Source of the DNA: Cyclobacteriaceae bacterium | GTDB taxonomy: Bacteria; Bacteroidota; Bacteroidia; Cytophagales; Cyclobacteriaceae | DNA length: 64,000 bases | Direction of reading: 5' to 3' | Assembly (NCBI GenBank): GCA_044221195.1 | Contig: JBGAPO010000005.1 | Location: forward strand, 35,481-99,480 | Shown here: positions 11,216 through 49,571 of the stretch, in pieces | Position numbering within the stretch: position 1 is the first letter of the stretch | Layout: every line of letters begins with the position of its first letter | Program-made: the position numbers and the translations under genes | The notes under the pieces: generated by a model | Databases searched by the model: none | Told to the model about the DNA's origin: nothing | Seen by the model: the letters and a program-made list of their open reading frames with translations, nothing else

Positions 11216-14152
11216 ATGAAGAGAGGCCTATTTTTTGGATTGATGTTGTTGACAACCCTGACAGCCTTAGGTCAGGCACCGGCTGCCCCTGCGGGCAAAG
11301 GGAAGATCAGCGGGGTTGTTCTTGACGGCGCCAACGGTGCGCCGGTGGAGTTTGCGACGGTTGCCTTGACACTCCCCAACTCAGACAAACCCATCGACGG
11401 AGCCATCTGCGACGACAAGGGTCGCTTCACGATTCACAAGGTTCCCAACGGCACCTATCGGCTCATCATTTCCTTTATCGGCTACGATAATCTTGAAGTA
11501 CCCAATATTGTCATCTCTGACAAGCAGAGCAGCGTAGATATCCCCGCGGCGAAACTTGCCACCAGCAACCAGCAGCTGCAGGCGGTGACTGTCGAAGGGC
11601 AGCGTGCGCTGGTCGAAGAGAAGGTTGACCGCACGGTATACAATGCCGAGAATGATGCCACCACCAAAGGCGGCGATGCCACGGATGTGCTGCGTCGGGT
11701 GCCCATGCTCACGGTGGACATGGACGGCAACGTAACCCTGCGCGGCAATTCGAACCTGAGAGTACTCATCAACAACAAGCCGTCGACGATCACCGCATCG
11801 AGTGTGGCCGACGCGTTGAAGCAGATTCCGGCCGACCAGATCAAGTCGGTGGAAGTGATCACCTCTCCTTCCGCCAAGTATGATGCCGAAGGTTCCGGCG
11901 GGATCATCAACATCCTTACCAAGAAGAACACCTTGCAAGGGCTGACGTTGAATGTGGATGGCGGCGTTGGCTACCGGGCATCCAACCTGGGCGTCAACGG
12001 AAACTACCGGACCGGCAAGATGGGTTTTTCACTCGGCGGCTTTGCGCGTGGGGGATATAATGTGCTCGGCAAGTTTTCCAACAGCCAGCTTACCACCTCC
12101 GGCGCCAATCAATCGCTCACGCTCCAGAACGCCGACACCCGCCGCAACGACCTCTTCAGCAACCTGAACTTCGGGTGGGATTACGATATCGACGCGAACA
12201 ATTCATTGACGGCCGCGGTGCGCTATGGCAATAGAAACGGAACCGGCTACCAGGACAATCTCTTTTCGCAAAACTTCAGCAACAACGTGCTCACCAGTGC
12301 CAGCCTCCGCCAGGTGCAGACCGACAACAAGAACAACAACATCGACGCCAGCCTGACGTACAACCACCTCTTCAAAAAGCCGCAACAAGAGTTCAGCCTG
12401 TTGGGTCAATACAGCCGGAACAACGGCAACAACAACTTTTACAATTACATCCTTGATACCGGCACGTTGGCCATCAACCAACGCCTGCGCAACGACAACC
12501 TCAGTTACAACGAAGAGATCACGGCGCAGGCCGACTATCAAACCCCGATCGGCACCAACCAACTGATTGAGGTCGGCGGCAAAGCCATTGTCCGCAAAGT
12601 GTCGAGCGACTATTCTTCCTATTCGGCTACCGGGGAGAGCGGTCCCTACACCAAGACGCCCAACAGCAATTTGTCGAACGTATTCACGTACAATCAAAAT
12701 ATCGCCGCGACTTATCTTTCCTACACCTACACGTCGAAGTCGGGCTACAGCTTCAAGGCCGGGGGGCGCTATGAGTACACAACCATTGACGCCAATTTCA
12801 GCAATGAAAAAGGGCCGGTGACCATTCCCTCGTACAGCGTCATCGTTCCGAGTGCGAATATTTCCAAGCGGCTGCCAAACGGTACCATCAAGATGGCCTA
12901 CAACCGACGCATCCAGCGGCCCAGCATCCAGTTCCTGAACCCCAACATCCAATTCAGCAACCCATACAACATTACCGCCGGCAACCCCAACCTGGAGCCG
13001 GAGTACACCAACAACTACGAGTTGTCGTACAGCACCGCCATCAAGAGTGTCAATCTTAATTTTTCAGGCTTCGTGCGCAACACCGACAACGCCATCCAGG
13101 CCATCCGCGGCGTCATCGGTAATGTTCCGACGGACCCTGACACGCTGGCCACCAGCTACAAGAACATCGGCCGTGAGGACGCGTACGGCGGAAGTGTCTT
13201 CGGCAATGTGAATCTCTCCAGCAAACTCACCCTGAACGCCGGCACAGACTTTTACTATGCCGTGTTGAGGAACAACGATCCCAATCCGCTCTACACGGCT
13301 TCCAACCAGGGCTGGGTGGTGAACTTCCGGCTGTTCGGAAACTATACCATCAAGAACGGATGGGGACTTCAATTCTTCGCCTTCTACCGCGGCCCGCAGG
13401 TGTTACTGCAGGGATCCCAGGGTAATTTCTATATGTACAGCATGTCGGTACGCAAAGAGTTCGCGAACAAGAAAGCCAGCATCGGCCTCGCCGCTGACCA
13501 GTTCCTGACCTCGTCGATGCGTATTGAAAACTATACCAAGTCGCCCATCATCGAGCAGAAGAGTGTGAACGAGATGTATAACCTCAACTTCCGCGTAACC
13601 TTCAGCCTGCGCTTTGGAAAGATGAGTTTTGACGCCCCCCGTCGCCGGAAGAAGTCGATTAATAACGACGACCTGAAGGACGGTGGCGGCGATACCGGCG
13701 GTGGTGATGCCGGCGGTATGGGCGGTGGAGCAGCAGCAGGTGCCGCCGGTGCGGGTGGACAACGTCCCGCCGCAACTCCGGGCACACGTCCCGCAACAAC
13801 TCCCACAGCGCCCGCCAACACACCGCCAACAGATCCCAATGCGGTGGTGAAAGCGGAAGGAACCTGGAGCTATACCATTGAATCTCCGCAAGGAGGCGGC
13901 GGCACGCTGACCATCCGCAAGGAAGGCGACAAGTACACGGGTGTGATCGTGAGCTCCCGCAACAACAAGGAGACGCCGCTCAGCACGGTAGCGGTCAACG
14001 GCAATGAAATCACCTATACCTACGATGTGGCGTTTGGCCCCAATACGACCACCATCCAGGTGAAATCGGTTATCGTAGGCGATGAGATGACCGGATCGAT
14101 GGCCCTGGGCCAGTTTGGGACTTTCCCCGTTAAAGCTAAGCGCCAACCTTAG
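11216..14152 (+). CDS. outer-membrane beta-barrel protein (CarboxypepD_reg + plug + barrel, TonB-dependent-receptor-like) with a C-terminal low-complexity linker and extra domain
   Basis: Signal peptide MKRGLFFGLMLLTTLTALGQA. The N-terminal domain (GKISGVVLDG...GTYRLIISFIGYD) is followed by plug-like DVLRRVPMLTVDMDGNVTLRG. The barrel ends at ...FSLRFGKMSF. It is followed by a 173-aa tail (13631-14149). Confidence 0.85.
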   Translation: MKRGLFFGLMLLTTLTALGQAPAAPAGKGKISGVVLDGANGAPVEFATVALTLPNSDKPIDGAICDDKGRFTIHKVPNGTYRLIISFIGYDNLEVPNIVISDKQSSVDIPAAKLATSNQQLQAVTVEGQRALVEEKVDRTVYNAENDATTKGGDATDVLRRVPMLTVDMDGNVTLRGNSNLRVLINNKPSTITASSVADALKQIPADQIKSVEVITSPSAKYDAEGSGGIINILTKKNTLQGLTLNVDGGVGYRASNLGVNGNYRTGKMGFSLGGFARGGYNVLGKFSNSQLTTSGANQSLTLQNADTRRNDLFSNLNFGWDYDIDANNSLTAAVRYGNRNGTGYQDNLFSQNFSNNVLTSASLRQVQTDNKNNNIDASLTYNHLFKKPQQEFSLLGQYSRNNGNNNFYNYILDTGTLAINQRLRNDNLSYNEEITAQADYQTPIGTNQLIEVGGKAIVRKVSSDYSSYSATGESGPYTKTPNSNLSNVFTYNQNIAATYLSYTYTSKSGYSFKAGGRYEYTTIDANFSNEKGPVTIPSYSVIVPSANISKRLPNGTIKMAYNRRIQRPSIQFLNPNIQFSNPYNITAGNPNLEPEYTNNYELSYSTAIKSVNLNFSGFVRNTDNAIQAIRGVIGNVPTDPDTLATSYKNIGREDAYGGSVFGNVNLSSKLTLNAGTDFYYAVLRNNDPNPLYTASNQGWVVNFRLFGNYTIKNGWGLQFFAFYRGPQVLLQGSQGNFYMYSMSVRKEFANKKASIGLAADQFLTSSMRIENYTKSPIIEQKSVNEMYNLNFRVTFSLRFGKMSFDAPRRRKKSINNDDLKDGGGDTGGGDAGGMGGGAAAGAAGAGGQRPAATPGTRPATTPTAPANTPPTDPNAVVKAEGTWSYTIESPQGGGGTLTIRKEGDKYTGVIVSSRNNKETPLSTVAVNGNEITYTYDVAFGPNTTTIQVKSVIVGDEMTGSMALGQFGTFPVKAKRQP

Positions 14153-14257
14153 CTGTTGGCTGTTAGCCATTGGCCTTTGGCTGTTAGCTGTTGGCCGTTA
14201 GCTGTTGGCCTTTGGCTATTAGCAGTTAGCTGTTAGCTATTGACAGTTGAGTATTGG
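14153..14257. repeat. 15 in-phase heptads, consensus CNNTTRG (TTGGC/TTAGC core)
   Basis: Units read directly: CTGTTGG CTGTTAG CCATTGG CCTTTGG CTGTTAG CTGTTGG CCGTTAG CTGTTGG CCTTTGG CTATTAG CAGTTAG CTGTTAG CTATTGA CAGTTGA GTATTGG. The array starts one nt after the OMP stop codon. Confidence 0.95.
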
Positions 14258-14332
14258 TTGGGGGAGTTCCCCATGGTGAGGGGCTGAGTTCATCGTGTAA
14301 TGCAGAAACACAACTATTGGTTGTAAGCCCAG

Positions 14333-14443
14333 CCAAAGGCCAAGTGCCAAAGGCCAAGTGCCAAGAGCCAAGTGCCAAGAGCCAAGTGCCAAGAGCCAAG
14401 TGCCAAAGGCCAATAGCCAACCCTAGCCAACCACACAGCCAAC
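14333..14443. repeat. 12 in-phase heptads CCAARNG (reverse complement of the 14153 family) plus a degenerate tail
   Basis: Units read directly: CCAAAGG CCAAGTG CCAAAGG CCAAGTG CCAAGAG CCAAGTG CCAAGAG CCAAGTG CCAAGAG CCAAGTG CCAAAGG CCAATAG, then CCAACCCTAG CCAACCACACAG CCAAC. The array ends 28 nt before ATG 14472. Confidence 0.95.
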
Positions 14444-14471
14444 AATTTTTCCTAAATTCGCCACAACCCCT

Positions 14472-16763
14472 ATGGCGTCTATCTCCCGTGTCGCGGAAGC
14501 GATCTTCTACTCCTTCCCGGTTCAGCTGCTGATCAACAATTTCCGAAGAAACCACGTACTCATATTATGCTGGATCATCCTGTTTGCGATGATCACCGGC
14601 AACTTTGGGAAATACCTGGGCATCCCCTACTTGTTCCTTGACCCCGAATACCTGAACGAAGTCAACTTCACCAGCTTCCTGATCATGGGCGTGCTGGTCA
14701 GCGGTTTCACGGTGGCCTACAACATCACCAGCTATATCATCGACGGCCACCGCTTTTCGTTTGTGGCGGCCCTCTCCCATCCCTTCAACAAGTTCAGCCT
14801 GAACAACGCGACCATTCCCATTCTCTTCTTCCTTACCTACCTCTACGAAATCATCAGTTTCCAGATTAACAATGAATTCACGTCGGCCAGCGATCTCGCT
14901 CTCGATCTTGCCGGCTTCCTGACCGGCATCTTTCTCATGGGCGGATTGCTTCAGTTGTATTTCCGGTTCACCCAAAAGGATATTTTCAAGTACATGGTCT
15001 GCCGCATCGATGAGGCCGGCAAACGCGCCTGGACGATCACCCGGGCGAGCGTGATGAGGAAGACGGAGCTCGGAAAGAAGAAGCAGGTGCGCGTGGACAA
15101 CTATTTCAAGTTGCCCTTTCAATTCAAGAAGGTTCGCGACGAAAGCGAATTCTACGACAAGGCCGCCCTTCAAAAAGTCTTCGATCAGAATCAGTTCAAT
15201 CTCATCCTCGTTCAGCTCCTGATCTTTGCGCTCGTCCTTGTGCTCGGGATATTCAAAGACTATCCCGCCTTCCAGCTCCCCGCCGGGGCCAGCTTCATGA
15301 TTCTCCTCACCATACTGGTCATGATCTCCGGGGCCTTCAGTTACTGGTTCGGCGGCTGGTCCGTCACCACTGCACTGATCCTCTTCCTGGGCCTCAATTA
15401 CCTGGTCGGTGAAGGCTGGCTGACCAAGCGGTACCCCGCCTTCGGTCTCGACTACAATGCGGAGCCCGTGGACTACTCGGTAGAGAACCTGCAGCAACAC
15501 AGCGACAGCACCCACATCCTGATGTCGCGTCAACACACGCTGAGCATCCTCGAAAACTGGAGGAAGAAGTTTGACGGCCCGGGCAAACCGAAGATGGTTT
15601 TTGTCTGCGCCAGCGGCGGCGGAAAGCGGGCAGCGCTCTGGACGTTAAGCGCGCTGCAAACTGCCGATAGTCTCACCCGGGGTCAGCTGATCGAGCACAC
15701 GGCGCTCATCACCGGCGCTTCCGGCGGACTGATCGGCGCCAGCTACTTCCGTGAAACGGTGCTGCGAAAGAAGTTGGGCCAGACGATGAACCCGCACAGT
15801 GCCGAACACCGCGAGAAGATTGCCACGGACAACCTGAACCCGCTCATCTTCAGTCTTCTTGCCAACGACCTGTTCGTGGGCTTCACGCAGTTTGAATACG
15901 AAGGACATGCCTATCGACGTGACAGGGGTTTCACTTTTGAGGAACAGCTGAATATTGATACCGAAGGGCTCATGGACAAGACCATCGCCGATTACCACGA
16001 TGCCGAGGCGAGCGCGATGATTCCCATGATGATCATGTCACCCACCATTGTCAACGATGGCCGCAAGCTCTACATTTCTGCACAGCCGGTGGCGTACATG
16101 AACGCCGAGATTCTGAACTTCCCGGATTACACCAACAACAAACTCAGCGGTGTAGACTTCCAACTATTGTTTGAAAACCACGGGGGGCCCAGCCTGCGGT
16201 TTCTTTCCGCTTTGCGCATGAATGCCACCTTCCCCTACATCACTCCCAATACGACGCTTCCCACCGACCCTCCCATCCGCATTATGGATGCCGGTATCTC
16301 CGACAACTTCGGTATTATGGACGCGACCCGCTTTCTCTATTCCTTCCGGGAATGGATCGCGGCAAATACATCAGGCATCATCATCCTCTCCATCCGCGAC
16401 TCGCCCAAGCTCGCGCCCATCACGGAAGAAAAGGGCAACACCATCATCGACGATTTCACGCAGCCCATCGCCAGCGTATACAACAACTTTGAGAACTTCC
16501 AGGACATTACCGGCGATAACCTCATCGGCTATGCCAGAACGTGGTTTGCCGATACGCCCATCGAGCGGGTTGACATCGAATACACGCCGATGTCGTACGT
16601 TCCCATCCTCCAGCAGATGGACAGCATCCGTCAACGCAGCGCCAGAGCTTCGCTGAGCTGGCGACTGACAACCCGGGAGAAAAAAGGTGTGGTGGAGACG
16701 CTAAAACTGGACATCAACCAGCAAGCGATTCACAAATTGGAGATGCTCCTCCTCAAGCCATAA
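14472..16763 (+). CDS. patatin-like phospholipase with a large N-terminal multi-pass membrane domain
   Basis: 763 aa. Several hydrophobic helices lie in the first ~330 aa. Patatin motifs are the oxyanion ASGGGKRAA, the nucleophile elbow TGASGG (GxSxG) and the catalytic MDAGISDNFG (DxG). Confidence 0.8.
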   Translation: MASISRVAEAIFYSFPVQLLINNFRRNHVLILCWIILFAMITGNFGKYLGIPYLFLDPEYLNEVNFTSFLIMGVLVSGFTVAYNITSYIIDGHRFSFVAALSHPFNKFSLNNATIPILFFLTYLYEIISFQINNEFTSASDLALDLAGFLTGIFLMGGLLQLYFRFTQKDIFKYMVCRIDEAGKRAWTITRASVMRKTELGKKKQVRVDNYFKLPFQFKKVRDESEFYDKAALQKVFDQNQFNLILVQLLIFALVLVLGIFKDYPAFQLPAGASFMILLTILVMISGAFSYWFGGWSVTTALILFLGLNYLVGEGWLTKRYPAFGLDYNAEPVDYSVENLQQHSDSTHILMSRQHTLSILENWRKKFDGPGKPKMVFVCASGGGKRAALWTLSALQTADSLTRGQLIEHTALITGASGGLIGASYFRETVLRKKLGQTMNPHSAEHREKIATDNLNPLIFSLLANDLFVGFTQFEYEGHAYRRDRGFTFEEQLNIDTEGLMDKTIADYHDAEASAMIPMMIMSPTIVNDGRKLYISAQPVAYMNAEILNFPDYTNNKLSGVDFQLLFENHGGPSLRFLSALRMNATFPYITPNTTLPTDPPIRIMDAGISDNFGIMDATRFLYSFREWIAANTSGIIILSIRDSPKLAPITEEKGNTIIDDFTQPIASVYNNFENFQDITGDNLIGYARTWFADTPIERVDIEYTPMSYVPILQQMDSIRQRSARASLSWRLTTREKKGVVETLKLDINQQAIHKLEMLLLKP

Positions 16764-25723: not shown

Positions 25724-25868
25724 GTTGGCAATTGGCTGTTAGCTATTGGCGGCACACCGACTACCGACCTACCGACTACCGACCTACCGACCACCGATCC
25801 ACCGACCACCGATCCACCGATCCACCGATCCACTGACCACCGACTTACTGACTACCGACTCACCGATA
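25724..25868. repeat. 4 TTRGC heptads followed by 15 ACCGAY units alternating 7 and 8 nt (15-nt super-period)
   Basis: GTTGGCA ATTGGCT GTTAGCT ATTGGCG comes first. ACCGA/ACTGA then starts at 25756, 763, 771, 778, 786, 793, 801, 808, 816, 824, 832, 839, 847, 854 and 862. Confidence 0.95.
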
Positions 25869-26904: not shown

Positions 26905-26946
26905 GTTGGGATTGGCTCATTGGCCTTTGGCTTTTGGCCGTTAACA
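26905..26946. repeat. about 6 TTGGC-core heptads between convergent mreB-like and argS
   Basis: GTTGGGA TTGGCTC ATTGGCC TTTGGCT TTTGGCC GTTAACA, starting immediately after the stop at 26904. Confidence 0.9.
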
Positions 26947-38578: not shown

Positions 38579-38641
38579 GTGAACAGTGAACTGTGAACAG
38601 TAAACGGTGAACTGTGAACTGTGAACAGTAAACGGTGAACT
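38579..38641. repeat. 9 in-phase heptads GTGAACN/GTAAACG
   Basis: GTGAACA GTGAACT GTGAACA GTAAACG GTGAACT GTGAACT GTGAACA GTAAACG GTGAACT. Confidence 0.95.
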
Positions 38642-38707
38642 GGACCACATATGGCGCGCGTTTGTAAGGCGCGGGATAAATATACTCGGAGGCAGCACCT
38701 CAATTCC

Positions 38708-38976: not shown

Positions 38977-39028
38977 GTGAACCGTGAACGGTAAACTACG
39001 GTTTACAGTTCACTGTTTACCGTTCACA
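38977..39028. repeat. hairpin built from GTGAAC-family heptads (3 direct + 4 inverted units)
   Basis: GTGAACC GTGAACG GTAAACT, then ACG, then GTTTACA GTTCACT GTTTACC GTTCACA. GTGAACGGTAAAC (38984-96) is perfectly complementary to GTTTACCGTTCAC (39015-27). Confidence 0.9.
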
Positions 39029-45933: not shown

Positions 45934-46024
45934 GTGAACTGTGAACCGTGAACAGCATCCTCGGAACTCGAAACTCGAAACTCGAAACTCGGAACTCGAA
46001 ACTTTGAACCTTGAACTTTGAACT
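45934..46024. repeat. 13 in-phase heptads with an RAAC core filling the nth-fmt spacer
   Basis: GTGAACT GTGAACC GTGAACA GCATCCT CGGAACT CGAAACT CGAAACT CGAAACT CGGAACT CGAAACT TTGAACC TTGAACT TTGAACT. Confidence 0.95.
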
Positions 46025-49432: not shown

Positions 49433-49571
49433 CCGTCAGGCTTCGGCTTCGCTCAGCCTGACGGTGTACCCAAATTTGAACCTGGTTCCGTCACCCTGAG
49501 CGGAGCCGAAGGGCCGTCACCCTGAGCGGAGCCGAAGTGCCGTCACCCTGAGCGGAGCCGAAGGGTGACGC
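49433..49571. repeat. REP/BIME-like cluster: one inverted hairpin unit plus three 26-nt tandem units
   Basis: The inverted unit is CCGTCAGGC-TTCGGCTTCGCTCA-GCCTGACGG (49433-64). CCGTCACCCTGAGCGGAGCCGAAG[G/T]G then repeats at 49488, 49514 and 49540. The last copy closes as the hairpin CGTCACCC...GGGTGACG. Confidence 0.9.

Follow-up and report, generated by a model that had tools for sequence, protein, structure and literature searches.

The 64,000-nt stretch of DNA analysed here (the window) is taken from contig JBGAPO010000005.1 (positions 35,481 to 99,480) of a Cyclobacteriaceae bacterium (GCA_044221195.1). This account concerns the spacer at 14149-14443, which separates the gene of an outer-membrane protein (OMP) from that of a conserved membrane protein and is filled by two opposed arrays of 7-nt units (heptads) around a unique core (Table 1). 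On the + strand, the left arm consists of 15 complete, in-phase TTRGCNN heptads (14149-14253) and a partial unit, TTGG, that reaches 14257, and the right arm of 13 in-phase GCCAANN heptads (14332-14422), beyond which two more GCCAAC copies stand out of phase at 14426 and 14438 and take the array to 14443. A preliminary description, made from the sequence alone, had counted 15 in-phase CNNTTRG heptads at 14153-14257 and twelve in-phase CCAARNG heptads at 14333-14443; 12 of the former are exact and the last three degenerate, while the latter are all present at 14333-14416 (one of them as CCAATAG), with the phase being lost after 14422. It had also let the left arm begin 1 nt past the OMP stop codon, whereas the array begins at 14149 and the stop TAG (14150-14152) lies within its first unit, TTAGCTG. 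The core, given as 75 nt, measures 73 nt and is indeed unique, as blastn-short against the genome returns the self match only and no copy elsewhere. The same description was right that CCAAAGG is the reverse complement of CCTTTGG and that the right arm stops 28 nt before the ATG (14472) of the downstream gene.

Both arrays are detected by Tandem Repeats Finder (TRF), with a higher-order period of 35 nt in the left arm and of 14 nt (94% matches) in the right arm, and because these periods differ, the arms appear to have grown independently of each other by block duplication. An inverted-repeat search recovers arms of 88 nt with a complementarity of 73% and a spacing of 84 nt, and the window contains 25 occurrences of three consecutive TTRGCNN units, as compared with 0.01 expected from shuffles. 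The two arms are thus real, in phase and able to pair, far beyond chance. The left arm is G-rich, with a GC skew of +0.24, and the right arm has a skew of -0.04. The commonest unit on the left is TTGGCTG and the commonest on the right are the complements of TTGGCAC and TTGGCTC, which are not complementary between the arms, and only the 5-nt core of the unit pairs regularly from arm to arm. The 73-nt core is non-periodic and harbors small local hairpins and no open reading frame (ORF). Two ORFs that run through the repeats are by-products of them, as had been supposed, since the repeat units contain no stop codons in those frames.

Folded as RNA, the + strand from 14140 to 14460 reaches a predicted -126.7 kcal/mol, as opposed to -102.7 +/- 5.0 for dinucleotide shuffles (z -4.8), and 64 base pairs join the two arms, in line with the earlier proposal that the arms can form a long mismatched hairpin. 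The spacer hence has terminal inverted repeats with a stable stem, as is typical of an intervening sequence (IVS). The - strand RNA folds better still (-138.5), because the TTAGC units give G-U pairs there. No Rfam family was matched at its gathering score, and membership of a known RNA family was rejected, as the sole match, of 36.8 bits to a plant miRNA-precursor hairpin model (gathering score 144), is sub-threshold.

Table 1. Coordinates of the spacer elements, the flanking genes and the PF05635 cassettes of the host genome (window positions unless a contig is named).
Feature	Coordinates	Strand	Basis or remark
TonB-dependent-receptor-like OMP, 978 aa	11216..14152	+	Pfam OMP_b-brl_3 (E 4.8e-88), plus Plug and CarboxypepD_reg
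Left (5') arm, 15 heptads TTRGCNN + partial	14149..14257	+	sequence, TRF
Unique core (loop), 73 nt	14258..14330	.	blastn-short
Right (3') arm, 13 heptads GCCAANN	14331..14422	+	sequence, TRF
Degenerate outer end of right arm, two out-of-phase GCCAAC copies	14423..14443	+	sequence
T-run (14446-14450), TAnnTTG-type motif TAAATTCG (14453-14460), 11-nt leader	14444..14471	+	conserved in relatives
Conserved 763-aa membrane protein with sub-threshold patatin-like domain	14472..16763	+	Pfam below cut-off
Spurious ORF through the repeats	14226..14555	-	open because units lack stop codons in frame
Second spurious ORF	14254-14532	+	open because units lack stop codons in frame
PF05635 cassettes, host genome (G000)	C20:129263-129928; C18:143704-144476; C18:145821-146513; C28:11900-12650; C37:22116-22750		G-rich array left, complementary C-rich array right

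The synteny of the OMP gene and the downstream gene is kept in eleven related genomes, in which the spacer takes several forms (identities are those of the whole downstream protein). The simplest, a perfect hairpin of 15 bp, has a single TTAGCAC unit in its 5' arm and the complement in its 3' arm and is followed by TTTT (L016, 77%). L013 (87%) has a short-looped hairpin made of about four units each of TTRGC and GCCAA, three left and seven right units surround a 55-nt core in L093 (73%), and opposed TTGGC/GCCAA units are present in L034 (78%). Only the right arm occurs in L015 (79%), 8-nt units are present in L017 and L019 (78% and 76%), and nothing periodic is seen in L014 (79%). In L018 (77%), the spacer extends over 709 nt (L018:2292-3000) and has (ATCGGTG)n past the OMP stop codon, (CACCGAT)n before the promoter and between them, on the minus strand at 2370-2744, a 124-aa ORF of the Pfam family PF05635 (E 1.3e-29). 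Both arms, whose retention had been named beforehand as a check, are therefore kept in the closest syntenic genome and in at least two others. Copy number and unit turn over fast at this one locus, with syntenic spacers of 1, 4, 3+7 and 15+13 units or none, and the hairpin of the window is the largest version among the compared spacers. Because several related species share it, with 1 to 15 units per arm, a TTRGC-type hairpin must be old at this position. No contig of the same species, in which a copy-number polymorphism might have shown, was found, the best metagenome relative being 73% identical.

The spacer has many counterparts in its genome, an assembly of 3.79 Mb in 44 contigs with 53% G+C from a member of the Cytophagales related to Ohtaekwangia and Chryseolinea. 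TRF identifies 292 distinct arrays with the dominant periods of 7, 14 or 21 nt, and only 27 of these lie deep within crude ORFs, many of which look spurious, so that about 90% or more of the arrays are intergenic in a genome of which about 90% is coding. The main unit families are TTRGCNN, GTRAACN, CGRAACT, TTGAACY, CTGGGNN, ACCGAYC and CCCCGGN. Spacers between convergent genes hold more than their share of arrays (80/262, against a background of 19%), although arrays are present in every context. With regard to the long simple sequence repeats (LSSRs) and short tandemly repeated repetitive sequences (STRRs) known from other bacteria, the spacer shares tandem, head-to-tail, in-phase 7-nt units (15 + 13 of them) and the genome shares the large number of arrays with an intergenic bias. 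The spacer is thus one member of a genome-wide array family and not a locus-specific device. The load of TTGGC arrays is lineage-specific, as three consecutive TTGGC units are matched 129 times here, in contrast to none in most of 80 congeners and 4-39 in a subclade, with sporadic bursts elsewhere in the order. A control pattern, CGGTTNN ×4 (the query reversed), was matched 288 times in a genome of another family of the same order (G060), and other lineages of the order therefore own large heptad families as well.

Further repeats of the window differ in arrangement. A second opposed pair is formed by GTRAACN heptads (38579-38642) and GTTYAC heptads (38977-39028), about 335 nt apart, and in the stretch between them there is a CTCGAAG array with a period of 11 nt, whereas no ORF is convincing. 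The divergent control region of an OmpA and an MreB-like gene (25724-25868) combines TTRGC heptads with an alternating 7/8-nt ACCGAYC array, and TTGGC heptads recur past the MreB-like gene (26905-26946), in direct and not in opposed order. The nth-fmt spacer (45934-46024) consists of three abutting blocks (GTGAACN, CGRAACT and TTGAACY) in one orientation with no partner arm, and three 26-nt tandem units at 49488-49565, which are 96% identical and have hairpin potential, represent a class distinct from the heptads. Miniature inverted-repeat transposable elements were rejected as an identity for the spacer, since the core is unique in the genome and there is hence no conserved multi-copy interior. 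The same applies to repetitive extragenic palindromic (REP) sequences or bacterial interspersed mosaic elements associated with a REP-associated tyrosine transposase (RAYT), as the only clear Y1_Tnp gene (C24:3186-3524) stands between unrelated hairpins and lies more than 3 kb from any heptad array. This RAYT-like gene stands amid short G+C-rich hairpins and a repeated GACTAAAGTCCATCCAAAA motif (C24:2850-3950), which may constitute a separate REP-like system unrelated to the heptads.

The arrays obey a rule of orientation. Among close opposed TTRGCNN pairs with arrays of at least three units, TTRGC comes first and GCYAA second in 13:0 cases, opposed GTRAACN pairs have GTRAAC first in 12:0, and in an unbiased test of adjacent complementary array pairs the G-rich arm is 5' in 19/20, the lone exception belonging to a triple. 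For adjacent arrays in general, the order G-rich to C-rich is seen 47 times and the reverse 6 times. In the left part of a spacer, arrays are G-rich on the + strand at a ratio of 100:25 and in the right part C-rich at 87:30, with a monotonic trend across the spacer; viewed on the sense strand, they are G-rich past stop codons (113:28) and C-rich before starts (74:27). Spacers without arrays have no such left/right skew. Two relatives (G269 with 8 pairs and G230 with 1 pair) show the same polarity, at 9:0. The G-rich strand thus runs 5' to 3' out of the nearer gene and into the spacer, two arrays in one spacer hence converge, and the spacer at 14149-14443, with one array per strand and the G-rich one first, is a convergent heptamer pair of the Xanthomonas type. 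As a cause of the polarity, transcription direction was rejected, since the rule is the same beside + and - strand genes, and so was AT skew, in which the unit families differ. Backup stop codons or the avoidance of start codons are not a general cause, because TTGGCNN and CTGGGNN contain no stop codons.

A link to one protein family emerges from the genes that do lie between opposed arrays. The host genome has eight genes of PF05635 (23S_rRNA_IVP; S23p/Avd-like), a family of small four-helix-bundle proteins, one of them at C20:129427-129822; of the eight, at least six stand between opposed 7- or 8-nt arrays and the remaining two between composite repeats, whereas heptad arrays on both sides are found for only 37/3243 genes (1.1%) when all genes are compared. 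Ordinary genes with two-sided arrays have the C-rich array on the left and the G-rich one on the right, never reversed, and hence lie outside the stems; PF05635 genes show the reverse arrangement and lie inside them. Each cassette has its own unit family, such as (GTTCCGG)n / (CGGAACT)n around a 131-aa ORF. In a sample of 30 PF05635 loci from 29 genomes of the order (28 besides the host), 20 have arrays on both sides, 9 on one side and 1 on none; array coverage is 12.7% within 350 nt of the gene and 1.8% farther away, and the order is G-rich to C-rich in 13/18 and never the reverse. For 30 further loci drawn from elsewhere in the phylum (other orders and classes), among which period 7 dominates, the numbers are 16, 11 and 3, respectively, with a coverage of 10.1% versus 1.9% and G-rich to C-rich order in 12/16. 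Taken together, PF05635 genes stand between such arrays in 36/60 loci sampled across the Bacteroidota, and in two congeners (G022 and G235) they are bracketed by TTGGC/GCCAA arms, the unit family of the spacer itself. Within the genus, PF05635 copy number and TTGGC array load are weakly correlated (rho 0.23, p 0.04), with the genomes not being independent of each other. PF05635 proteins are homologous to Avd (PMC10053308), which forms a basic pentamer able to bind both DNA and RNA (PMC5758913). A diversity-generating retroelement (DGR) context was rejected for the genes of the host, since the assembly has no reverse transcriptase (RVT_1) and they are therefore not DGR accessory genes. The genome does encode RNase III (C43:17763-18134), and its 23S gene is uninterrupted (2889 nt), with no IVS insertion.

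As regards the flanking genes, the C-terminus of the OMP is conserved among the syntenic relatives. The downstream gene had been described as patatin, a label that needs correcting: the 763-aa product gives a full-length match to Pfam Patatin over residues 379-618, but at E 0.004 and 17.8 bits this match falls below the cut-off of 27.7, and no Pfam or NCBIfam family is matched at default thresholds. Orthologues of the protein are found across the order. Just past the right arm, the T-run and the TAnnTTG-type motif, the latter a putative Bacteroidota -7 box by its likeness to that consensus, are found 11-14 nt before the ATG in all relatives. As they are kept even where the upstream neighbour is a divergent, helicase-like gene, the downstream gene very probably has its own promoter at this position. 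A scan of the + strand of the spacer detected no canonical terminator and no sigma-70 promoter.

In view of its arms, its predicted stem and its counterparts, the spacer is in all likelihood a gene-less heptad-array stem-loop with the architecture of the IVS-like cassettes that carry PF05635 genes. What the hairpin does is far more tentative: that it ends, processes or stabilises the OMP transcript, with the downstream gene being transcribed separately, is a possibility to which we give somewhat less than even odds. Taking classification and function jointly, we read the spacer as a stem-loop of IVS type that lacks a gene, was expanded by slippage at the 3' end of the OMP gene and probably serves as a hairpin for RNA processing or for termination, and assign to this reading a probability of roughly 55%. 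According to this model, the OMP gene would once have ended in a small TTAGC-type hairpin, which would have been enlarged through slipped-strand mispairing, each arm separately. On read-through from the OMP gene, the arms, about 100 nt each, would pair into an imperfect stem, which, by analogy with 23S IVS stems, would most plausibly be processed by RNase III, or else would end or stabilise the OMP message. The stem would at the same time insulate the downstream gene, whose own promoter is predicted 10-30 nt past the right arm.

Several results weigh against a hairpin with such a function. The preliminary description had proposed that a structural role should show as a fold better than that of shuffled heptad arrays, and this failed: when the order of heptads is shuffled within the arms, the energies are -123.2 +/- 4.2 and 43/200 shuffles are at least as good as the native order, hence there is no register-specific or compensatory signal, and inter-arm pairing is a generic property of two arrays of one unit family and not a tuned register. 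The stem is broken in almost every heptad, the longest uninterrupted helices being 13 bp. Across the genome, 15 of the 47 G-rich to C-rich pairs are complementary, compared with 10.1 +/- 2.6 upon random left/right re-pairing (P about 0.05), so that selection for pairing as such is weak. Because complementary pairs barely exceed random re-pairing, the polarity rule and a small unit repertoire between them account for most of the hairpin potential, and the polarity itself is unexplained by a model of hairpin function.

The outcome of the heptad shuffles and the slight excess of complementary arms also speak for the view that the spacer is a neutral or selfish by-product, in which slippage expands heptamers wherever they are tolerated and the hairpin is incidental, with no role in expression. 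Such a view would also accommodate the fast turnover of units and copy numbers between species, the absence of arrays from some syntenic spacers (L014), the different block sizes by which the arms were apparently enlarged and the lineage-specific array load. However, slippage by itself would not be expected to give a strict rule of orientation relative to gene boundaries, at least four species have retained the paired type at this spacer, and some hairpin is present even where there are no arrays (L016), so that we regard the by-product view as rather unlikely, although it is the main rival. The orthologous spacer of L018, with its PF05635 gene between opposed arrays, could instead suggest that the spacer of the window derives from a mobile PF05635 cassette, or is the empty scar of one, in which the gene was lost and the arms stayed behind, as would the bracketing of PF05635 genes by such arrays across the phylum and by TTGGC-type arms in congeners. 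Against this, the core shows no significant similarity to any PF05635 cassette (z < 2.2), a by-eye resemblance having failed at this step, and tblastn detects no PF05635 pseudogene remnants in 71 cores between arrays. Moreover, the arms of L018 are built of another unit (TCGGTGA), 292 arrays stand against 8 genes, and gene-less TTRGC hairpins occur in L013, L034, L093 and, minimally, L016, so that the gene-less form looks ancestral at this spacer; origin as a scar is therefore improbable.

Action at the level of DNA, with the heptads as tandem sites for a protein, such as the basic PF05635 pentamer or a nucleoid protein, or with the copy number of the right arm tuning the downstream promoter in a manner resembling phase variation, would fit the position of the right arm, which stops 9 nt before the -7-like box and covers -20 to -140, the conservation of only the 5-nt core of each unit and the co-occurrence of the arrays with a family of nucleic-acid-binding proteins (PMC5758913). 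Yet arrays are as common beside stops as beside starts, with a surplus where genes converge, the correlation between PF05635 copy number and array load is weak, and Avd has no sequence specificity in vitro (PMC5758913), all of which makes this account, too, hardly probable. The least credible alternative is that the OMP gene ends in a canonical intrinsic (Rho-independent) terminator or that the DNA forms a cruciform. The near-canonical hairpin with TTTT at the same position in L016 and the T5 run past the right arm (14446-14450) point towards a terminator. On the + strand of the window, by contrast, the scan finds no terminator-like site with a U-tract, which also counts against the preferred reading; the T5 run starts 7-8 nt past the last paired base, and most other paired arrays of the genome lack a T-run. 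A cruciform is unlikely, since a centre of 73 nt and a mismatch rate of 27% do not favour its extrusion.

The closest published parallels to the IVS-like stem-loop proposed here are the heptamer arrays of Xanthomonas campestris and X. axonopodis (GGGAATC) and of Nostoc (GGGGAYT), which likewise consist of tandem 7-nt units with an intergenic bias and number hundreds per genome (PMC4692102). Xanthomonas genomes hold 70-75 heptamer pairs each, always convergent, with one array per strand, as here; related species differ in the length and sequence of the repeats but keep the single or the paired type (PMC4692102, Rehm et al. 2015). In contrast to Xanthomonas, the host described here belongs to the Cytophagales within the Bacteroidota, has several unit families (TTRGCNN, GTRAACN, CTGGGNN and others) without G-runs and hence without G-quadruplex potential, has arms of up to 15 units, and shows a link of its arrays to PF05635. 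Another set, the TAACTGA heptamers of Beggiatoaceae, Cyanobacteria and some Bacteroidetes, resembles the present arrays in its intergenic location, its orientation bias relative to the downstream start codon and its sporadic distribution, with long arrays in some Bacteroidetes (MacGregor 2015, PMC4679880). These sets differ in that they are mostly short direct repeats of a single unit type immediately 5' of starts, with inverted pairs being essentially absent (one in 170) (PMC4679880). Neither of these two heptamer-repeat papers (PMC4692102, PMC4679880) mentions S23p, IVS or RNase III.

The IVSs of 23S rRNA in Coxiella burnetii and Leptospira share with the spacer a long stem made from terminal inverted repeats, and the S23p/PF05635 gene in their loop matches the sister loci of this genome and the orthologous spacer of L018. 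The loop of the Coxiella IVS contains the S23p ORF, RNase III cuts the terminal-inverted-repeat stem, and the cut site carries heptameric GACAGAT repeats whose number varies from strain to strain (PMC4990558, Warrier et al. 2016). Unlike these IVSs, the spacer lies between two protein genes and not within a helix of 23S rRNA, its loop has no ORF or remnant of one, and its arms are arrays of 100 nt as compared with a 28-bp stem. The STRRs of cyanobacteria are also intergenic 7-bp tandem repeats with hairpin potential between co-oriented genes, in another phylum; they form hairpins between hupS and hupL and near hoxW, and roles in transcript stability, coupling or termination have been proposed for them (PMC2670836). 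No published polarity rule or PF05635 link for STRRs was found in the literature. The three STRR units reportedly given by Mazel and colleagues in 1990 resemble the three main unit families here, which is a lead and not a test.

It could be, although we hold it doubtful, that the heptad arrays (the 292 here and, by extension, the cyanobacterial STRRs and Xanthomonas GGGAATC) and the S23p/PF05635 genes form one element, namely a convergent, G-rich-to-C-rich stem whose loop comes with or without an Avd-like gene. The protein would then bind the stems, process them or propagate them, and stems that lack a gene, such as 14149-14443, would rely on PF05635 proteins acting in trans. If this were true, the fixed polarity would reflect how the element is made or recognised, rather than the needs of the flanking genes. 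To our knowledge, no function or partner protein has been assigned to heptamer repeats, which were described for cyanobacteria in 1990 and for Xanthomonas in 2015, and we know of no function assigned to the S23p/PF05635 family in 30 years, except for the Avd relatives in DGRs. Convergent heptamer-repeat pairs and IVS-like stems are thus known kinds, and what the present case contributes is the comparative series and the quantitative rules. At a single spacer, the locus provides a series that leads from a plain hairpin through a short heptad hairpin and the 15+13-unit hairpin to a gene-bearing cassette. To this it adds a quantitative orientation rule, by which the G-rich strand points away from the flanking gene, with ordinary genes placed outside the stems and those of PF05635 inside, as well as limits on the hairpin reading, in that pairing is not register-specific and complementarity is barely above expectation. 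Together, the series, the orientation rule and the negative results make the question of a function and a partner protein a testable one.

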